DNA of 57,251 nt, counting the filler, from Sphacelaria rigidula (lineage: Eukaryota), in assembly GCA_964200075.2 (NCBI GenBank). It is 8 parts of 8 records of this genome, joined end to end, with 100 filler letters (N's around TTAATTAATTAA, not from the genome) between each part and the next. Parts side by side here need not be neighbours in the genome. Positions count along the whole stretch, not along the records: positions 1 to 7,070 come from CAXNAA020016647.1; 7 more parts are not named here. One strand, 5' to 3'. Under the pieces are notes generated by a model. It was not told the DNA's origin, did no database searches, and was given only the letters and a program-made list of their open reading frames with translations. The translations under genes and the position numbers were made by a program. The first letter of the stretch is position 1; every line of letters begins with the position of its first letter. Shown piece after piece: positions 1 through 35,367 of the stretch.

Positions 1-182
1 CATCCCGTGTGGCAGATCTTATGCTGTGCCCATGGCCCCCCCCGCACCGCCTGTGAGCACTGGCGCCCCCCCCCCCCCCCCTCCCCCCGCTCCGGCGTCT
101 GGCTCGAAGTCATGTGTGAAAGTATCAATAATGTGACTACCCCATCGTGGGTCATGTATTTCTAATGACCCCCTTTGTTCAC

Positions 183-1956
183 CTTATGTACCCTGGCAAG
201 CACGTCTGGTATGGCTATGGAAGATCTCGTCCTTTGGATTGATCGCCCGTAGAATCCTTGATGCCGCCAGCCGGTGAGATGCAGGACCGCTTCTCTGATC
301 GTCGCATTCAGCAGAGCACAGATTAGACTCTTGTACAACAATACTCTGTTCGTTTTGCTCTTATTTTTGTCATCCTTCCCACTCCCCGCCCTTCGTCGGA
401 CAAGGCCGTAGTCTCTACAGATGAACCCGACACTGCGCACAAGATATCTCGTGGTAGATGTAGTACAGTAGTCGACATTAGACATGATACTTCTCGATTT
501 GGCGCGATGTTTCCAGATTTTTCGGTGCCGAGGGGATATGCCACGTTTAACGTTTGATTCCACACCAAAATTTGGGGACCAAGATATACTAGTACCCAAC
601 ACAGATTACAAAAGGAAAATCACTTCTAGAATCTGTCTTGGACGCCTTGCAGGGTAACCAGTCGTCGGGGGTTCTACGAGCATACAGCCCCAGGTTTTCG
701 CTCCTTGATATATTTGTTCGATTGCTCTCGATTGAACCAATTTCAATCATTACGGTGATCAATCACATTGCTCAGTTTTTATTTCAATTTTCAAGTTATT
801 AATAGCGCTACAGCCGAACAACCATGGGTTGGGATAATATGAGTTCAATAGCACCCCCTCAAACACTCGAGTTCATCCCATATTGGCCCGACAGCACGAA
901 TTTGGGAAATATTTCGAGTCAACCTGTGTCTTCCAACATGCACAACAATATAACATTTCTACAACTTTCGAGTGAAAATTGCGAACAATCTGCGAAAAAT
1001 CCACGAGAGAATCCATAATCCGAAGGTTGACTACTGTACCACCAGTGACAGCCAAGAGTTTGGGGACACAGAAACCTACAGCACGTGAGTCAAACCCGGT
1101 GATGTTCGAAGGCGGCACATGCGACGCCTTTATTTTTTCTGTCATCTCAAATCTTCCACGGTGAACCACCCACAACGACAAGTGCACGACAACATGTACC
1201 CTCCAGCAGTGCGTTGCAAGGGTTCAGCATCGTCAACAGTCCCGACCTGAATGACAGGTGTACCCTAAAACTACGGCGACAGGATACTTCGATTCTTATA
1301 CGTGCCTGAACGTTTTCGAAGGTATTGTACCCGTGTGGACACACACACCCCCGAGCATGGAGAATTTGTCCACGACCGCAACGGTCTTGCCGTACTTCAC
1401 GCTCTCTAGAGCGCACTTCTGGGCAGCCGGACCCGACCCTGCAGTAGGATCGGTTGCAGCATCGTGGAAGCATCATACGCGGAAAACGTCGGCGTAAGTA
1501 CACAAGACACCAAGGGAAACGAATCTAGCAGCAGTCGAGGAACTTCGCTTGACGGTGATGTTGCACTTGAAGTGGAAGCCGTTTAGTTTGCGAGTGGGCG
1601 AGACAACCAGAAGAGTCTCGTTTTGTACAGAATAGAGAGTGTGAGTTTCTGTAGACATGCATCGTGGCTCAAGATACTTGTTGATCCAAGGCTGGCACAA
1701 ATACATACAGCAATACTATCGTCCCGGTCTGTCGGGAAAAAAGGTAGCAAATATGACTGGTTTATATCCCGTACATACCAACAATGACGAGATCAAAATG
1801 TGCACTGGATTTCGCGAGCGTTCCCCCACCGCCGCCCCCAGCCGCTGCAGCTGCTTGCTGTACATATCTTGACGATCCCAACTGCCAGTAGTTGGGTCGC
1901 CGCCGCAACTGTCCTCGGCCGGCGTTTCCAGCTGCGGAGAGTCCTACTTTGAGCAT
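183..1956 (-). CDS. sthA: Soluble pyridine nucleotide transhydrogenase (SthA/UdhA-type flavoprotein), 5' part; exons 1956-1779, 1438-1306, 294-183; continues off the contig
   Basis: The phase-compatible splice gives [24 protein letters not shown]...[89 protein letters not shown]. This has an FAD Rossmann motif (DLVIVGSGPA) and the single-Cys CxxxGTIPSK motif typical of STH, not the CxxxxC of LPD/GR. Donors are G|GTATGT, AG|GCACGT and AAG|GTGAAC (alternative exon end 192); both acceptors are CAG. Confidence 0.88.
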
Positions 1957-2450
1957 ATTCGCTATACGTAGTGTGTTTTTGCGACGCAATTTTGCGTGCT
2001 GCTTGGCGAAGCCTAAGTATGTACTAACGCGCCCTTGCTGCTTGCCTGCACCCACAACATCACGCAACACCCGAGCTCTCCGCTCGCATCGCCACATTTG
2101 ATCGTGTGTTTGCAGACCCGTGGTAAGAAAGGTATAAATGACATAAAGGAAGAATAGAACCTTTATACATAGTGTTGTTCGCAGCAGTAATTACTGCATT
2201 TTAGTTTTGAAATTTCAAATGTGTTTAGTAGAACTCTGTAAAGGATAACTAACACCACGCTCTCTATGAAGAGAGACGAAAAAACAAATGTTCATAGGAT
2301 TGGGGAGATGGAAAAAAAACATATAGGCAAAATATTAGAAAATGTTTCCATATATGCGGGCAATAGTTCTAGTGCTGTTTAAGCATCACTTGCACCGACT
2401 CTACTGTCCAAGGTTGCAAAGCAGTGCAACAAATCCTGTGCGGTACCAAG
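1957..2450. promoter_or_regulatory. Probable bidirectional promoter/5' UTR region between divergent sthA and IMPase start codons
   Basis: 494 bp between the two inferred ATGs, with an AT-rich core at about 2130-2400. No specific element was identified. Confidence 0.5.
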
Positions 2451-14748: not shown

Positions 14749-16631
<1,883 letters not shown>

Positions 16632-26200: not shown

Positions 26201-28047
26201 ATCGTGACGATCTCTGATCGCATCAGGTCAAAAATACTCGTCTCAGGTTCTAGCTCAGCGTCCAACAATAGTCGACGCCACTGCGCACGTAATACTCTTT
26301 GCTCACGAATAAGGGGATGTTGCTGCGCCGACCAAACTTCATCTTCATCTTCAACAAACTGTTGATCGTCCTCGCCACCTTCATCGTCGTCTCCGCTTTC
26401 GTCGCCATCTTCCTCGTCGTCCTCGTCGTCCTCGTCGTTTTCGTCGTCCTCGTCGTCCTCGTCGTTTTCGTCGTCCTCGTCGTCCCCCTCATCCTCTCCC
26501 TCTTCCTGCTCGCTCCCGTCCCGAGATTGACCCTCACTTCCCACATAACCATCCCCGATTTTCTCACCGGCAACCTTGTTTGGGTTGTCCTTACCCTCTA
26601 TGATCCCATTTGTCTTGTGTGCATCTAACCCAGGTCCGTCGACTCCCATTTCCAACCCCGCCGCTTCTACTTGGTTTGCAATATTATTCTCCTCCGATGG
26701 TTGTTGTTTCACGGGCTCGTCTACCGGGATCCACCGGCTGAGCTCCTCGATCTTGTCCAACACGACGTCCACAGACCCGTTCCAGTCCCCCCGGTCCAGA
26801 CTTTCTAGTTTTGCCTTCAGCTCTTCTATGTTGCTTGCCGCTGTCTCCTCGGTTTGCCCGTCTCTCTTTCCCCTATCGCCCATGTATTTGTCGTCGCCTC
26901 GTTCTTCCATCACTGGTGTTTCATCCGTTATTATCTCTGCGTGTTCATCATCGCTGACGGATTCCATCACTTCCTGGGGACTTGGTCCCTCCGCAGCTCT
27001 ATCCAACTCGGAGTCATGGCCCATATCACTGCCGTCGACGACGGATGAGGACGACGCACTGGCGGATCTTGTTTGCGACGACGCCACGGAATGCTCGTCA
27101 ACGTCATCCGTTTTCCCCATTTTTGTCAGCAGTGCTTCAGCAAGCGGCTTGTCGCTTGTTTCCCCCTGTTGAAGCACCATGCAATTACCTTGTACATTCG
27201 TCAGAGTTCGGCTCTCCTGACGGTCCTGTGTCCTTGCTGCCGCTTCTTCTGTCTCATCAGCTAGCACGGCATCGGTTGGCAGTTGATCATATTCCCCGGC
27301 TTTGGCGCCGAGAGCAACGACTTTGACTCGTTGGAGCAGCCCCGCGAATGAATCGTACAGATGAGGGGTGAAGAACAGCCCGCGTTCAGAGTTGGCGGAC
27401 AGGAATTCTTGCCGTTGCCGACGGCGTATCTGACAACATGATTAGAAGAGAGGGAAGTTTCTACAGAGGTTTTCCTGTTGTCATAGCGGGGCTTGCTCGT
27501 AAACTACAGTAACCGACCGCGCCGTCGCGCCGTGTACGGTGCTGCACGAATAGCTTGAAGCTGGCAACTGTGACATACTGCCTGAAACTAGAAAAAAGGA
27601 ACCTGTCGTACGCGTGACTCCGAGGGCCTCATCTTGTCGCGCTTTAAGTAAAAGTTCACTTTCTGTTTGAAATAGCTGAAGCATTACACATACCCTTGGC
27701 TTCGGTACCCTCTTGTTTCCGTTAAACGTGCTTCAAGAAAAAACAATCCCGCATCGCGAAGTTCAGCACAAGGACGATTTATCGGCGTGTCTTTCACCAT
27801 TCACGTATACCTCTTCTTCTCGCACAGGGGTGCGAACACCCCGGACAATCTCCCGCACAAGCTCCTCAACCTTCGCCGCGAGGACTCCTTTCTCCACCGA
27901 TGCCGCCAGACGCCTCCTTGCGTGTTCCCGTGTATCCGGTGTTAGCGCCAGACCCCGTAGGCCCACCTCCGCCGCCCCCTCTTCCATCTCCAGTTTTTTA
28001 ACCTCGACCGCACCTTGACCACCGTCACCACCAGCACAATCCTCGTC
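23249..28047 (-). CDS. Large protein with acidic N-terminal region and divergent phosphoglycerate-kinase-like domain, internal exons 28047-27811, 27429-26092, 25533-24429, 24105-23899, 23592-23249
   Basis: Five phase-compatible GT-AG exons (3231 nt, 1077 codons) with no stops. PGK-like segments appear in the correct order: TLSRSDIEGQRLLLHVDL, SAVAIVS, SALRATSLAVSTLLGMDVEF, VMMVEGL, VDVTVLDAPRTLYR, DLNAMAYLTEMPDRPLLAIVGG, LVDGLLDLVDTLAIGGAMSVTLLAAL, ARRLIVKARKRGVK. Confidence 0.85.
26400..26490 (-). repeat. In-frame acidic repeat (DDEDDEN)n, 27-bp period
   Basis: TCGTCGTCCTCGTCGTCCTCGTCGTTT repeated; encodes DDEDDENDEDDEDDENDEDDEDDEE. Confidence 0.9.
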
Positions 28048-28450
28048 CTAATTTAACCCCGAGGGGATGGGCAGGGAGAAAGAGAGATTGGAAGAGACAA
28101 GGTCCGCTTTGAAAAAAACGAAGTGATTCAGGTCACGACGCTTCGGCGTTGGTACTCTTGTCCTTGCCCCCTCACAAGCGTTGAGCTTCCGCAAACAGGC
28201 GGCTGTCAGCAAGCGTTGATTCGGGTGCTGATAAAGAAGGCAGCGCACGCTTCGAAGTCTTGGCAGCTAGAGAACGTTCACCGAGGTGTCCGGGGGTACT
28301 CTGTTATTTCAGGAACACCGGTGGAGGTATGCCACAATCTGGAGGCCCCTTTTACTTCGCTGCTGTTTTTGGTTTTAGGGGTCGCATTCAGGCAGTCGAT
28401 TGAAAAACGATTCTTCCCCGCCCCCTCCCGCGCGACAGATGTGAAATTGA

Positions 28451-28578
28451 GAAGCTAACCCTCCTTTTTTTTTAACCTACTATAACACAGCCCGGACATA
28501 GACATGGAATAGAGAAGCTAACCCTCCTTTTTCTTTAACCTACTATAACACAGCCCGGACATAGACATGGAATAGAGA
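28451..28578. repeat. 63-bp tandem duplication at contig end
   Basis: GAAGCTAACCCTCCTTTTT...CCCGGACATAGACATGGAATAGA starts at 28451 and again at 28514. Confidence 0.9.
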
Positions 28579-29029
28579 NNNNNNNNNNNNNNNNNNNNNN
28601 NNNNNNNNNNNNNNNNNNNNNNTTAATTAATTAANNNNNNNNNNNNNNNNNNNNNNNNNNNNNNNNNNNNNNNNNNNNTGTGCAAACACCATTTTTTTTC
28701 ACAAACGGCCCTTCCCCTCCCCCCCCCCCCCCCCCCCCCCAACACCCACGCACACGCACGAGCGTGCACATGTTTTATCGATGAAAAATTGGGTGCCGTC
28801 ATGCGGGCAGAGTAACGTTGTGTGAGCAGCTGGCCCTTGTATTGTTGACCTGCCAATAAGGGAACGAGCCGATACAATGGCCTGAGACTGAATCTTTCGG
28901 CAGTGAAGCACTTTGCTAGTAGACAGGATCGAACTTGAGAGTTTTTTGTAGCCCTGGATGACCATCGTAGACGTCGTTGCAGGTGGGATTAGGGTAGTAG
29001 GAAGAGGAGGAGCGGGCGCGAGCGAGCGA

Positions 29030-32000
29030 AAGGCCTGCGTGTAGAGAGAGTCGAGCTCGAAAATTTGTTTCACCCTGGGTGATGTACTATGTATGTCAAC
29101 TACGGTATACCTCGTGGCGGGCAAAACTCGGATAGGAGGGGCGGGCAGGGGGACGGAAGGGCCGACTTGTGGAGAAAGCCGAGCTCGTGATTTCCTTTCC
29201 GTTATATGCCTTGCGGCAGGCAGAGAGTAAGTACGAGAGGATAGAAGACCGGGGCGAAGGGATTGCTTGCGGAGAGCGGGATCAAAGCTGATGTTTGTTG
29301 TCACTCTGAGTGGTATATTCCGTATACCACCTATGGTATACCTCCATGACAGGCGGAGCTAGCGGATGCGGCGGGGAGCGGGGGACAGTAATTTCCTTGC
29401 GAGGAAAGTCGAGCTTGGGGAATGTTTTCGCCCTGGGTGATATACTGCATCTACCATCTATGGTGTGTCTCGTCAAAGGCGGAATTCGCATGGGGAGGGA
29501 CGGGGCGCAGGGTGGTGGAAGGGCTTGCTTGTGCAGATGGGGTCGAGATAGGAAATTTGTTTTTCCCTGGGTGGTACACTGCGCATATTATTCATGGTAC
29601 ACCTCGTGGCGGGGGGAATCAGCTTGTAGGTGCGGGGAGCAAGAGGATGAAGCTTTGCATGTGAAGGAAGTTGGGGTCGGAGAATGTTTGCGCCCTTGGT
29701 GTATACTTCAATACGTCTGTCAGGTATGGTATGCCTTGTGGCGGGCGTAATTTGTGCAGGAGCAGGGAAAGGAGACGGGGGGGGACTTGCTTGTGGAGAG
29801 AGGGTCGACGCGGGGAGTTCGTTTCGCCAGGGGTGGTGTAGAACATATACCATCTATGGGAAGCCTTGTTGCAGGCATAATTGCCGTGTAGGTGCGGGGA
29901 GCAGGAGGATGAGGCTTTGCAGGTCGAGCGAGGGAGCTGGGCTCGGAGAACGTTTACGCCTGGGTGATATTTTACAGTACGTCTGTCATGTATGGTGTAT
30001 TTCGTGGTGGGCGGAATATGCGTAGAAGCAGGGGAGGGGTGCGGGGGGAAAGGGCTTGCTTGTGAAGACGTGGTCGACTGAGGGAATTCGTTTCGCCCTG
30101 GGTAATATACAACATATGTCGCCTATGGTGAATCTTGTGGCAAGCGAAGTTGCTGTGGAAGTATTGGCAGCAGGGAGGGTGAGAGCTTGCTCAGGGAGAA
30201 ACCCGAGCTCGCAAACATTTGTTGCTCTGGAAATCTTGTCCCTATCGTGGACTTCGTGGCAGGCGAAATTTTCGGACAATGGGATGAAGGGTCTGATGGA
30301 GGGGGGTGATTCGTTGAGGACGTCAAACGTAGGGTTTGACGTGGCCCTGGTGGCATACACGTGGGAGTAGAGGCGACGGGGTAGGGGCTTGCTTGTGGAG
30401 AAGAACGAGCTTAACATGTGTTGTCGGTCTGGGTGGTATATGCGTGGGAGTGGCGGCGGGGATGGAGGAGACCTTGCCTGTGCAGGGAGTCGTGTTAGAG
30501 GTTTGTTGTCGACCTGAGTTGGACACTTCGTGTAAAACTTGTGAAATCCTCTGTGGCCGGGAGGTCGGGAAGGAAGACGCCGCTTGTGAAGGAATCCAGC
30601 TCGGGAGGCGTTGTTGCCCTAGGTGATCGTGTGGGCGCAAAGGGTGGAGAGCTTACTTTTCGAGGAAGCCGAGCTTGGGAATTGATGTTGCCCTGCGTGG
30701 TATACTGCGTATACCATATATTGCATGCCTCGTGACTGGCGAGATTTGCATCGGAGAAGGCCGGAGGGCCTAGGGGGGAGTGCTGACCTTTTGGGGAAGT
30801 CGAACTTGATATTTGTTAGCGCCCTGGTCGCGTACTCGTTGGAGTCAGGGCGGGGGTCGTACGAATTTGTTACTTGCCTCAGTCGTTGACCATTGACCAC
30901 GCATCCCTTTCGCGACGGAGAGTTAGGGCGGGGGGGGAGGAAGGGATTGCCTGTTTGGAAAGTCGACATGATGATTTCTCGTCGCCTCGATGATATATAG
31001 AGAGATAGAAGGGGGGCGGAAAACGAGGAGAATGTACTTGTAACAGAAGTCGAGAGTTGTATTTGCTTTTGGCCTGTGTGGCATACTCCGTGCATCACGT
31101 ACGGTATGCCCCTCGGCAGGCGGAACCCGCTCAGAAAGGAGCAGTGAGGAAGTTGAGGTTTGTTGTCGCCCTGGGTGGTGTACAAAAAAGACGGCAGGTG
31201 GGGAAGAAGGAGGACTGGCTGATGAAAAGGTCGAGGTTGTGATTGGTCGTCGCCCACGGTGGGATGCTGCCTGCAGTATGTGTTGAGGCAGGCGGAATTG
31301 ACGTACGCGGATGGAAAAGGGGAAGATGGGCATGGTTGCTGAGGAAGTCGAGGTTGGGATTTGTGGTGGCCCTGGGTGTGTATCTCGTATATCAGAGATT
31401 GTATGCGTGGTGATAGGCGAGAATTCCATCGAAGGGGGTCAACGGGTCGTGGTCGGCGAGGGCTGGCCGTTGGAGTCGGGGCAGGGAGGAGGAGGGCTGG
31501 CTCGTTGAGGAGGTCGAGCCAGAGGTTTCTCGTCGCCCCGGTGGTATACGCGTGGAGGTGAAGATGGGAGCGGGAAAGAGAGAGGTCTTGATTGTGGATA
31601 AGGAGTCGACGTTGAGCTTGATTGTGGCCTAGGTAATATACAGAGACAAGAGGGCGTGCTTGTAACGAAAGTCGAGCTTCGGGTTTGCTTTTGGCCTGTG
31701 TGGCATACTCCGTGTATCACGTACGGTATGCCCCTCGGCAGGCGGAACTCGCTCAGAAAGGAGCAGTAAGGTAGTGTACGCAAAAGAGGGTAGGTGGGAA
31801 AGAGGAAGGGCTGGTTGATGAAAAGGTCGGGGTTGCGATTGGTTGTCGCCCAAGGTGGAATGCTGCCTATGGTGTGTGTTGCGGCAGGCGGAAATGTACG
31901 CGGGTGGGGGAGGGGAGGAAGTTGAGCGTGAAATTTGTGGTGGCCCTGGGTGTGTACCTCGTATATCAGAGATTGTATGCGTGCAGGCAGGCGAGATTTG

Positions 32001-33450
32001 CATCGAAGGGGGTCAACGGGTCGTGGTCGGCGAGGGCTGACCATTAGAGTCGGGGCAGGAGGGAGGAGGGCTGGCTCGTTGAGGAGGTCTAGCCAGCGGT
32101 TTCTCGTCGCCTCGGTGATATACGCGTGGAGGTGGAGATGGGAGCGGCGTTGAGCTCAATTGTGCCCTAGGTAATACACAGAGACAGAAGGGTGTGCTTG
32201 TAACGGAGGTCGAGCGCTGGATTTGCTTTTGGCCTGTGTGGCATACTCCGTGTATCACGTACGGTATGCTCCTCGGCAGGCGGAACTCGCTCAGAAAGGG
32301 GCAGTGAGGAAATTGGGGTTTGTTGTCGCCCTGGGTAGGGTACGAAAGAGAGAGCAGGTGGGGAAGAGGGGGGACTGGCTGATGAAGAAGTGAAGGTTGC
32401 GATTGGTCGTCGCCCACGGTGGAATGCTGCCTGTGTTGTGTGTTGCGGCAGGCGGAAATGATGTAGCGCGGATGGATGGGCATGGTTGCTGAGGAAGTCG
32501 AGGTTGAGATTTGTGGTGGCCCTGGATGTGTAACTCGTATTTCAGAGATTGTATGCGTAGAGGCAGGCGAGGTTTGCGTCGGACAGGGTCTCAAAGGGTC
32601 GTGGTGGGTGAGGGCTGGCCGTTGGAGTCGTGGCAGGGGGGCAGAAGCTCGTTGAGGAGGTCGAGCCAGAGGTTCCTCGTCGCCTCGGTGGTATACTCGT
32701 GGAAGCGGGGGTGGAGGGATGGCGGAAGCGAGAGGACTTGATTGTGGATAAGGAGCCGACGTTGAGCTTTTTTGTGGACTGGATGGTACCCGCATGGAAG
32801 GGCGGGTGGAGAGACAGGGAGACGTGCTTGTAACGAAAGTCAAGTGTTCGATTTGTTTTTGGCTTGTATGGGGTACGCCGTGCATCACGTATGGTATGCC
32901 CCTCGGCAGGCGTAACCCACTCAGAACGGGGCGGTGAAGAAGAGACGTGCTCCTTGACGAAGTGAAGGTTGGGATTCGTTGCTGCCCTGGTTACTGTACG
33001 CAGGAGAGGGCAGGTGGGAAAGAAGAGGACGGGCTGATGGAGGAGTCGAGCTTGCGCTTGATCGTCGCCCTCGATGGGATATTGCGTGTATCGCCTATGT
33101 AATTCTTCATTTCGCGCCGAAGTTGCGCAGGTGAGGGACGGAGGGGGAGAGGTTCGCTCGTTGAGAAAGTCGACTCTGTTATTTATTTTGGTCCTGCGTG
33201 GCTTGCGCATAAGTGAGCAGACGGGGATATGGAAAGGCTTACTCTTTGAGAAGGCAGCCCTTGTTTGTTTTGCCGCCCTGGGTGTGGTACTGCGTATATT
33301 GCCTACGGTATTCCTCGTTTCAGCCTGAAGTTACGTGGGCGGGGGACAGAAGGGGAGAAGTTTGCTCTCACGGGAAGTCGACCTTAGGGTTTATTGTCGC
33401 CCGGGTGGTGTAATCCGTATACCACCTACTGTATGGTACACCTCGTGACC
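29030..33450. repeat. Complex degenerate tandem array with about 540-630 bp higher-order units
   Basis: A core GAAGTCGAG...TTTG..GCCCTGGGTG(G)TATAC recurs roughly every 60-140 bp. The higher-order marker TTTTGGCCTGTGTGGCATACTCCGTG sits at about 31071, 31693, 32231 and (diverged) 32861. Confidence 0.85.
30848..30920 (-). mobile_element. Extreme 3' end fragment of the LINE family inserted in the tandem array
   Basis: GTACGAATTTGTTACTTGCCTCAGTCGTTGACCATTGACCACGCATCCCTTTCGCGACGG, with G-runs on both sides. Confidence 0.7.
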
Positions 33451-35367
33451 GGCAAAATTGACGGGGACGGGCGGGGGGTGTGCTTTTGTCTGCTCTCTGA
33501 TGTGTGAAATTGCTTTGATTCGTCACGTCGCAGCGCAGCGCAGATGGAATCTTGACTGGAAAATGTGTGTTCGTATCCCGACCTTCCGTTTTGCGTACAA
33601 CCCTTGCCCTCCCGCGTCCCTGGGGGCCTCTTGTGTTCGTTCGGCGCCTTTCTGCTTCCCTCGACCCTTTTCGTAGTTTGGATGAAGGGTAAACGGCAGG
33701 GAAATACGAGACACGATTTTGACGTGGAGAAAAGTGCACGTTCAGAGGGTAGCATCGTATTTTCTCCCGTTTACTTTGTATACAAGTATTTGCAGGGTGT
33801 GTTGTCTCTATTTTTCGTGCGAATAGGAAAGGGCAAGGCTTCAAGTCTTCCCCCCATAAAAAGTAAGCTCTGCGTGATGGGTGAACCCTTGAGCGCGAGA
33901 TGCCCGATATCGACTCGGGATTTTGACTGCTACAAAAATGGTGTGATGGGCAGCTGCTTCGCCATCAAATCACATCGCCATGTTCCATAACGGTGTGGAG
34001 GACCACCGATTATACCAGTATTCAAATCCGGCCTACTCTGAGGAGTTCATCGGGCTGGGGCCCGTTGGCTTCACCTTGTACTCACCTGAAGTTGCCTCTT
34101 CTATCCACCCGTTTCTCATTAGAGGTGGGAATCGGCGAGCTTAGTCTCCTCCTTGACTTCTTACTGTCGAACGGCGGCTACGAGACGTGTCTTGCACTGT
34201 CGTCGGGGAAAGTTATTCGAGGGCTATGAAAGTCTCTGCATATCATCACCTCGTCGGCACTAGGTGCGTACGATGCTGGCCATCAAAATATTTCCCTGGC
34301 TCGTCAGGTCCCGCCGCGTTGTGGTTATAATAGCGTCCGTAAGGATGAAGTGTGTGAATTCCAGGGTAAAGGTGAAATAGAAAACCTACGTCCCTTCCGC
34401 ACCTACTGCGCCGAGCGTAGCATCAGGGGACTGAAGGGCTGGTTCAGTGAGCGCCGACGCGACGGCTATACATCTGCCTCTGGGATACCTTGGCCAATTC
34501 GGGTGTGAAATCGCCAAACATGATGTGTGGCAAAACTGACGATTTCGATATAATATTGAGTTTGTGAGCTGCAAAATAACCTAGCACCATTTCTGCCAGA
34601 ACCCGTCAACAGGTACGTACCATGGTCTGTAATTTGTCGATGAAACGTAGCTTCAAAATATTATGCCTGTGCCATGGGTCATGTACGCAGACAGGGCACG
34701 GCGGTGACCGGGGTGGAGGGCGTGGGGAATGAACCGTCAACGAGCTCAGCGGTGGGCACTTTAAAACCCATTGACCAACAGGGTGGGTCATCTGGGTGAA
34801 ACAATATGGTTGCAAGACTCCAGACCACGCTGGCAGTCAAATGGTCCGTTGACCTTTGAACCTTCGGGATGTATACCGCAAGAGCACTCGCCTGCTGAAA
34901 ACCTTGCAATTAGCCTACATGAGACTCAGGTGACTGCTCCCGACATCGAAGTGTTGACTCTTGGACCGCCAGGCAGGGTGGGTATTTATGTAGTCGCCAT
35001 AATTTTCAATAGATTGCTCTGCTTCGCAATCGCGCTTCCAATTTTCTGTTTTCCTTTTCCTTCTTAGGCGACTTGTTATACTTGCCATGTATCGAAATAA
35101 TATAACTTGTTGAAACGTGCTTTTTTTACCCTTCTCCGTCGAAGAGGGCTCAGCGGATGTTGACACCTCAGACCGTTCCAGAGCACCTTTGCGTTTTCCG
35201 TAGGTCACAGCGTAGTGGATGAGAGGACCGCGTACTTAGAGGACCTCATCGTAGCTCGAAAAAACAATCGGGCCAGTCCGTGCAGGTACCACGACCCTGA
35301 CCCCAACACTAACCCTAACCCCAACCATACGGGCTGGTTCACGGGAAAAACAAAAATACACTCATCG

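Follow-up and report, generated by a model that had tools for sequence, protein, structure and literature searches.

The window analysed here, i.e. the whole stretch of 57,251 nucleotides (nt) joined from eight parts of the genome assembly of the brown alga Sphacelaria rigidula (GCA_964200075.2), carries on its minus strand, between positions 1956 and 183, the 5′ part of a nuclear gene, the first 141 codons of which are distributed over three exons. The predicted product is an orthologue of the soluble, FAD-containing and energy-independent pyridine nucleotide transhydrogenases (STHs) of the SthA/UdhA family (EC 1.6.1.1). Mitochondria are usually described as using NNT, a membrane-bound, proton-pumping transhydrogenase. 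We consider it likely that the whole reading of the locus holds, namely that this is the start of a spliced nuclear STH gene, that its leader is mitochondrial, that the enzyme would exchange NADPH and NADH in the matrix, and that it belongs to an old eukaryotic clade.

Gene structure and splicing

Joining the minus-strand segments 1956–1779, 1438–1306 and 294–183 by their coordinates gives 423 nt, i.e. 141 codons without a single stop, and a peptide that starts with MLKVG and ends with ARVHK. Exon 1 (1779..1956) opens with the ATG at 1956–1954, reads through 59 codons up to HFDLVIV and comprises a basic leader of 53 amino acids (aa) and the start of the Rossmann β-strand HFDLVIVG. It ends after the first base of a Gly codon in GSGPAA, as indicated by the translations, by a contig joint from 1437 to 1778 (cut +1) and by the homologue alignment. 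Intron 1 (1439..1778, minus strand; 340 nt) is a GT-AG intron in phase 1 (G/GTATGT...CTGCAG/G, the slashes marking the splice sites). Exon 2 (1306..1438, minus strand) codes for a 43-aa peptide with the FAD-binding GXGXXG motif (GSGPAA) and the active-site stretch. Intron 2 (295..1305, minus strand; 1011 nt) is in phase 2 and of the GC-AG type (CAG/GCACGT...GATCAG/A); it has the features of a U2-type GC-AG intron, i.e. a GC donor in a consensus-like 5′ splice site, an AG acceptor and removal in contigs. Exon 3 (183..294, minus strand) ends in phase 0 at AAG/GTGAAC, and contig pieces cover 181–294. The remainder of the window (1..182, minus strand) is the start of intron 3 with the donor GTGAAC, the loose end of the contigs lying at 181. 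The window thus holds the N-terminal 141 of roughly 600 codons, and exon 4 onward, about three quarters of the gene, lies beyond window position 1.

The joints of this structure are present in contigs of public sequencing runs. The stretch is contained in eight sequencing runs, four of which were compared with the window; X1, X2 and X3 are three samples of one study, and X8 belongs to a second study. Contigs of X1, X2 and X3 join 294 to 1306, skipping 1011 letters, and 1437 to 1778, skipping 340. Read on the plus strand, the first skipped stretch is bounded by CT..GC and the second by CT..AC, corresponding to GC..AG and GT..AG on the gene strand. The X8 contigs have the same two joints, with figures identical to those of X1 in every column; for this reason X8 was counted as a duplicate, and its data are probably the X1 data. 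The word depth is 24.8–61.8 in the spliced contigs and 2.1–8.8 in separate contigs located in introns, contig depth being no measure of expression. In every compared run a loose end of at least 255 letters begins at 181 and matches nothing in the window. Its reverse complement reads on in frame as V-E-S-S-E-T-E-V-V-R, the counterpart of which in Undaria is ...KVEASEMEVVRD; ...ARVQKVEASEMEVVRD. Since the contigs carry on in frame past 181 into an exon off the window, we placed the end of exon 3 at 183, the letters 182–181 being common to the window and the start of exon 4. A candidate end of exon 3 at 192 (donor GTACAT) was ruled out, as the contigs extend to 181. One X3 contig measures 3024 nt, of which 2508 nt are past exon 3; therefore, a long downstream part of the transcript exists. 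Transcripts of the gene are spliced precisely at these two junctions, of which one belongs to a GC-AG intron. The three exons had been proposed in a first-pass annotation made from the sequence alone, and their coordinates are borne out to the base, including the non-canonical GC donor; both proposed joints (1779/1438 and 1306/294) are present in contigs of X1, X2 and X3.

At the other end of the gene, the 5′ untranslated region (1957..2064, minus strand) is given the extent that the transcript-like contigs reach; their pieces end at 2064, 2052 and 2047, which cannot mark the true transcript start. Within this contig-covered region, an out-of-frame upstream ATG at 2060 (2058–2060, minus strand) opens an upstream open reading frame (ORF) of 15 codons. 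Beyond the contig ends, an in-frame ATG near 2097 (about 2095–2097, minus strand) is followed by no stop before 1956. Contig cover is nil in the bins 2081–2400, as well as in parts of intron 1, and does not decide between the two in-frame ATGs. We prefer the ATG at 1956 because the Ectocarpus and Ascophyllum proteins begin at the aligned position. In intron 3, window positions 60–100 hold a long G-run (a C-run on the plus strand), where only 31-letter contigs are found; it may be low-complexity sequence or an artefact of the assembly end.

For this DNA there is a single public protein model, P0004, a partial record of 130 aa that carries the label Sphacelaria rigidula. Every letter of P0004 is reproduced when the window is translated with an alternative splice model, in which the GC-AG intron gives way to one with a GT donor at 1311/1310 (6 nt upstream) and its acceptor at 329/328 (33 nt upstream). 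In this form the protein gains ten residues that are present in no homologue and loses the Phe of the conserved SKTFREAVLHL, and the model runs into intron 3 (VNKGGH*). A joint of this type is absent from the contigs of X1, X2, X3 and X8. The public gene model is wrong at the GC-AG intron, and the GC-AG model is correct. GC-AG introns are a known weak spot of gene predictors.

Assignment to the SthA/UdhA family

The 43-aa peptide of exon 2 matches 22 NCBIfam models. The best of these is NF003585, Si-specific NAD(P)(+) transhydrogenase (53.8 bits, E = 1.2e-14), and the runner-up is lipoamide dehydrogenase (34.4 bits, E = 9.8e-9). Given the E value for NF003585, this is no chance match. In Pfam, the same peptide yields a weak Pyr_redox_2 match, and the peptides of exons 1 and 3, taken alone, have no match in either Pfam or NCBIfam. 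With the 130 residues of P0004, the NF003585 score rises to 85.4 bits over profile positions 3–94. NF003585 is the equivalog model for SthA (EC 1.6.1.1), with a cut-off of 465 bits; the cut-off of the Lpd model is 408.8 bits. Because the fragment in the window cannot attain a whole-protein cut-off, we scored full-length orthologues instead. The five full-length brown-alga orthologues all reach 493–538 bits with the SthA model, vs only 262–288 bits with the Lpd model. Each of the 13 full-length proteins scanned scores above the SthA cut-off, and none of them above the cut-offs for Lpd, glutathione reductase (GR) or MerA.

The sequence at 1326..1343 (minus strand) reads C-V-H-T-G-T. This CXXXXT motif is the STH counterpart of the CXXXXC redox disulfide; the corresponding residues in the alignment are CTHWGT in E. 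coli SthA and CLNVGC in E. coli Lpd. The FAD-binding GXGXXG Rossmann motif DLVIVGSGPAAQ straddles the joint between exon 1 and exon 2. Outside the window, the YXXXXE motif is present as YPTLAE in all five brown-alga proteins examined (P0009, P0080, P0018, P0014 and P0007). According to a passage in PMC9460512, STHs can be told from flavoprotein disulfide reductases by two features, CXXXXT where the reductases have CXXXXC, and YXXXXE where they have a His-Glu pair.

Over the 91 mature residues encoded in the window, identity amounts to 85% with Ectocarpus and Undaria, 57% with an acidobacterial STH and 38% with E. coli SthA, and the spliced sequence is colinear with the homologues through both junctions. 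The nearest solved structure to the ochrophyte homologue P0040 is 9n4y, a 'Soluble pyridine nucleotide transhydrogenase' (324 bits), with dihydrolipoyl dehydrogenases at 178 bits or less. In the trees, for which full-length orthologues were used, the longest branch parts the STH-like rows, E. coli SthA and the brown algae included, from E. coli Lpd. The first-pass annotation had taken the CxxxGT variant for a hallmark of soluble transhydrogenases and had assigned the gene to this family rather than to Lpd, GR or MerA; the encoded motif, the profile scores of exon 2 and of the orthologues, and the relationship to 9n4y all agree with that assignment.

Comparison with known systems places the alga's protein more precisely. 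With E. coli SthA/UdhA (b3962) it shares the model NF003585, the GXGXXG and CXXXXT motifs in the window and, in its orthologues, YXXXXE; by analogy, it would also share the FAD-mediated, energy-independent hydride transfer between NADPH and NAD+. It differs in its low identity and in belonging to another subclade, and the alga's gene is nuclear, contains introns and encodes a 53-aa basic leader, whereas E. coli SthA has six residues at this place. Ectocarpus siliculosus P0018 and the other brown-alga orthologues are 77–85% identical over the mature N-terminal 91 aa and have the same kind of leader and the same signature, but their leaders are 37–42 aa long as opposed to 53 aa in the window, where the leader includes an Ala/Gly run. 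The best solved relative of P0040, PDB 9n4y (14 chains), was compared by sequence only and with P0040, not with the window protein; unlike the brown-alga type, it is of bacterial length (464 aa). Lpd/E3 and other disulfide reductases have the fold with two dinucleotide-binding domains, GXGXXG and the first redox Cys in common with the alga's protein, which, however, has CXXXXT instead of CXXXXC and stays below every disulfide-reductase model cut-off. With NNT/PntAB, the net reaction (NADH + NADP+ <-> NAD+ + NADPH) would be shared, and so would the compartment if the targeting predicted below holds, but NNT/PntAB is an unrelated membrane protein that is coupled to the proton gradient and has no FAD. 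Part of PMC4518329 contrasts the two kinds of transhydrogenase.

Phylogenetic position and existing annotation

A search with the exon 2 peptide returned 54 longer proteins, the best being P0004, followed by Undaria, Ascophyllum, several Ectocarpus records, Discosporangium, Hapterophycus and Scytosiphon. Orthologues are thus found in at least six other brown-alga records. Further matches come from Phaeothamnion, Chrysoparadoxa, oomycetes, Corallochytrium, Nk52 and bacterial proteins of 470 aa. When the full-length Ascophyllum protein was used for the search, 7785 of 8000 scored candidates had E <= 1e-30. Among the matches listed, the named eukaryotes are brown algae, Chrysoparadoxa, Nannochloropsis oceanica, dozens of oomycetes in two size classes, Corallochytrium, Nk52, Rmarinus and one MMETSP transcript, and the nearest named bacteria are Acidobacteriota metagenome-assembled genomes (44–48% identity). 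An exhaustive search of representatives gave 27148 proteins at E <= 1e-3 and 2339 at E <= 1e-30.

A FastTree phylogeny built from 139 rows gathers all 18 rows of named eukaryotes in one clade of 35 rows (support 99). A quick IQ-TREE run with a mixture model on 58 rows likewise unites the 18 in one 34-row clade, with a value of 99 in the Shimodaira–Hasegawa-like approximate likelihood ratio test (SH-aLRT). These named rows represent brown algae, Chrysoparadoxa, Nannochloropsis, two oomycete paralogues, Corallochytrium, Nk52, Rmarinus, one MMETSP transcript and one EukProt transcript. In neither tree is there a named bacterium inside the eukaryotic clade, and in both E. coli SthA is placed elsewhere, outside it. 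Brown algae, Chrysoparadoxa, Nannochloropsis and the MMETSP transcript form an ochrophyte subclade of 11 rows (support 98–99). The 34-row clade also contains 16 unnamed rows, 14 of which have an N-terminal extension of at least 23 residues, a rough proxy for their identity; P0166 and P0025 do not. Outside this clade, two rows (P0194 and P0173) have extensions of at least 30 residues.

From the trees, the gene is best described as a member of one old eukaryotic STH clade, which predates the brown algae, and not as a recent bacterial transfer into this alga. Since the brown algae are nested among ochrophytes in one eukaryotic clade, the gene was in stramenopiles long before there were brown algae. 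The position of the brown algae with the STH rows and away from Lpd is in line with the first-pass annotation, but its further claim, that this alga acquired the gene from bacteria and subsequently gained the introns, did not hold. A bacterial origin with later intron gain may instead be true of the ancestor of the clade. Rooting was by E. coli Lpd, which sits on a very long branch and caused 'long branches meet' warnings in both trees. Because of this root branch, and because the bacterial sister differs between the trees, we name no bacterial donor.

It is important to note that the family is already represented in public databases, where proteins of Ectocarpus, Nannochloropsis and dozens of oomycetes are named 'NAD(P)(+) transhydrogenase (Si-specific)' or 'soluble pyridine nucleotide transhydrogenase'. 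The latter name is given to the Nannochloropsis oceanica protein. Many oomycete entries read 'putative soluble pyridine nucleotide transhydrogenase', with 'NAD(P)(+) transhydrogenase (Si-specific)' in UniRef; P0018 of Ectocarpus siliculosus also has this UniRef name, and its NCBI record reads 'conserved unknown protein'. The proteome table of Nannochloropsis gaditana in PMC7554720 includes, in the part seen, a 'Soluble pyridine nucleotide transhydrogenase' (W7T7X5). As to the literature, a passage of the review PMC4518329 presents STH as an enzyme of bacteria, on which most work has been done in Gammaproteobacteria. An excerpt of an Ectocarpus microarray paper (PMC2718500) has the Gene Ontology (GO) term 'NAD(P)+ transhydrogenase (B-specific)' under 'Transporter', which may refer to NNT, and membrane NNT is the subject of the diatom papers PMC10356853 and PMC9292941, to judge by excerpts. 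The phylogeny in PMC9460512 is based on searches in all three domains, and its main text, as excerpted, is silent on eukaryotes. A full-text literature search, from which subscription journals were absent, found no paper characterising a eukaryotic STH. Since the family assignment is already public, the locus marks a gap in characterisation and not a discovery; what is new is a better-modelled member of an automatically annotated, uncharacterised family. The novelty that had been attached to an algal enzyme of this type is weakened by these existing names.

Location, function and alternative explanations

The 53 aa that precede the first Rossmann strand (1798..1956, minus strand) form a putative mitochondrial presequence, as suggested by their composition and by comparison with homologues. 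They include 7 R/K, 10 Ala and 6 S/T but no D/E, and they have no hydrophobic signal-peptide core, the highest 10-residue Kyte–Doolittle mean being 1.18. N-terminal extensions of 28–101 aa, mostly basic, are found in 16 named eukaryotic homologues, vs 3–7 aa in five bacterial ones (6 aa in E. coli). The basic extension without acidic residues, which was already recognised in the first-pass annotation, is thus a common property of the eukaryotic proteins. Plastid import in heterokont algae requires a signal peptide for the endoplasmic reticulum (ER). A basic leader of this kind is also found in oomycetes and holozoan protists, organisms without plastids. Because the leader has no signal-peptide core and plastid-less relatives share its type, a mitochondrial presequence is the best reading.

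On this basis, the leader would direct import into the mitochondrial matrix and then be removed, and the mature flavoenzyme would oligomerise. Hydride would pass from NADPH to FAD and on to NAD+, or in reverse, without coupling to a proton gradient, so that the enzyme would act as a valve equilibrating the matrix pools of NADP(H) and NAD(H). If E. coli is a guide, hydride would flow mainly from NADPH to NADH, the reverse being possible, and NADPH from NADP-dependent dehydrogenases would thereby feed the respiratory chain. In the text excerpted from PMC9460512, E. coli SthA is octameric and other STHs form filaments; the main role of the E. coli enzyme is there given, citing Sauer et al., as the re-oxidation of excess NADPH.

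A peculiarity of the brown-alga orthologues P0009, P0018, P0014 and P0007 (and of P0080 and P0058) is an insert between the ...EQG of the FAD domain and the start of the interface domain, YGIYT(I/V)PE. The brown-alga insert is 112–120 aa long and acidic (18–23 D/E). The linker at this site measures 20–21 aa in bacteria and holozoans (21 aa in E. coli SthA, in contrast to the brown-alga type), 24–26 aa in oomycete paralogue B, and 39–47 aa in Chrysoparadoxa, Nannochloropsis, the MMETSP transcript, the unnamed P0059 and oomycete paralogue A. Ascophyllum nodosum has a second STH-like protein, P0080, an N-terminally truncated model with a 62-aa linker and 57% identity to P0009. Because P0080 exists beside P0009, brown algae may carry two STH paralogues, as oomycetes do. 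The exons in the window match the first type (P0009) and not P0080.

Several points weigh against the reading of the locus as a matrix transhydrogenase of an old eukaryotic clade. The fragment in the window is too short to reach the whole-protein SthA cut-off, and its 141 codons stop short of the part of the gene that would encode the NAD(P)-binding and interface domains and the YXXXXE motif. The transhydrogenase activity is extrapolated from bacterial enzymes which are 38–57% identical over the N-terminal part, and the acidic insert could alter oligomerisation or function. The mitochondrial location suggested for the product is drawn from the composition of the leader, in which the Ala/Gly run is unusual and the top 18-residue amphipathic moment is 0.44, i.e. 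lower than in Ectocarpus (0.77) and Ascophyllum (0.74). Furthermore, none of the eight sequencing runs is recorded as RNA, although four (X1–X4) are guessed to be; we took the runs to contain RNA because their contigs are spliced. Finally, the sister group of the eukaryotic clade differs by method, with Acidobacteriota adjacent in the FastTree but not in the IQ-TREE phylogeny, and the Lpd outgroup used for the root sits on a very long branch.

Among the alternative explanations, the one that deserves most attention, although we think it unlikely, accepts a true STH-family enzyme but places it in the plastid, in the cytosol or in two compartments, or assumes that the clade has shifted in function, for example to an NAD(P)H oxidase, a diaphorase or an insert-regulated form. 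The Ala/Gly-rich middle of the leader and its moderate amphipathic moment would fit another location. A shift in function would fit the acidic insert, which is so much longer than the bacterial linker, and the measurable oxidase side reaction that a passage in PMC9460512 reports for E. coli SthA. A plastid location, however, would need the ER signal peptide, for which the hydropathy of the leader leaves no core, and it would not explain why plastid-less oomycetes and holozoan protists have the same leader type. As regards function, both STH-defining motifs are kept across the clade.

The other two explanations have far less in their favour. That the gene codes for a mitochondrial dihydrolipoamide dehydrogenase (E3) or another flavoprotein disulfide reductase, be it GR, MerA or thioredoxin reductase, is highly improbable. 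Fold and superfamily are indeed shared, as reflected in the weak Pyr_redox_2 match, the exon 2 peptide and the orthologues produce matches to the Lpd, MerA and GR models as well, and a few oomycete homologues are deposited as 'dihydrolipoyl dehydrogenase'. Yet the second redox Cys of the CLNVGC in E. coli Lpd is replaced by Thr in CVHTGT, the Tyr of YPTLAE stands in the orthologues for the catalytic His of the His-Glu pair, not one of the 13 full-length proteins attains a disulfide-reductase cut-off although all pass that of SthA, and Lpd branches off on its very long branch outside all STH rows. An artefact, be it contaminating bacterial DNA, a pseudogene or ORF fragments that lie together by chance, has a negligible probability. 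One could invoke that the gene is cut by the window edge with a G-rich low-complexity run near the window start, and that its sole public model is partial and reads into an intron. Against this, two spliceosomal introns are precisely removed in contigs of three runs, the spliced sequence follows the homologues through both junctions, the contigs continue in frame into the next exon, and orthologues occur in other brown-alga records. As far as the present data go, the spliced contigs refute an artefact.

Elsewhere in the window, 14 long ORFs were compared with Pfam, of which 13 had no match. The remaining one, an ORF fragment at 15147–15698 on the plus strand, matches the AAA ATPase domain PF00004 (E = 5.7e-15) and is probably an exon of another nuclear gene. 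The region 28000–34000 has a strongly positive GC skew (up to +0.39) at 55% G+C, and many overlapping long minus-strand ORFs of 200–365 aa without a Pfam match; this may be a repetitive region or low-complexity sequence that resembles coding DNA.

Returning to the transhydrogenase, the locus can be set in a wider frame, for and against which we see about equal odds. The old eukaryotic STH clade with mitochondrial-type leaders, comprising ochrophytes, two oomycete paralogues, holozoan protists and Rhodelphis, would constitute an energy-independent NADPH/NADH valve beside or instead of NNT, and the acidic insert of the brown-alga proteins would possibly regulate activity or assembly. If this is true, the balance between NADPH and NADH in the matrix is probably kept without the proton gradient in some eukaryotic lineages, which would have a bearing on the redox and stress metabolism of kelps and of oomycete plant pathogens.

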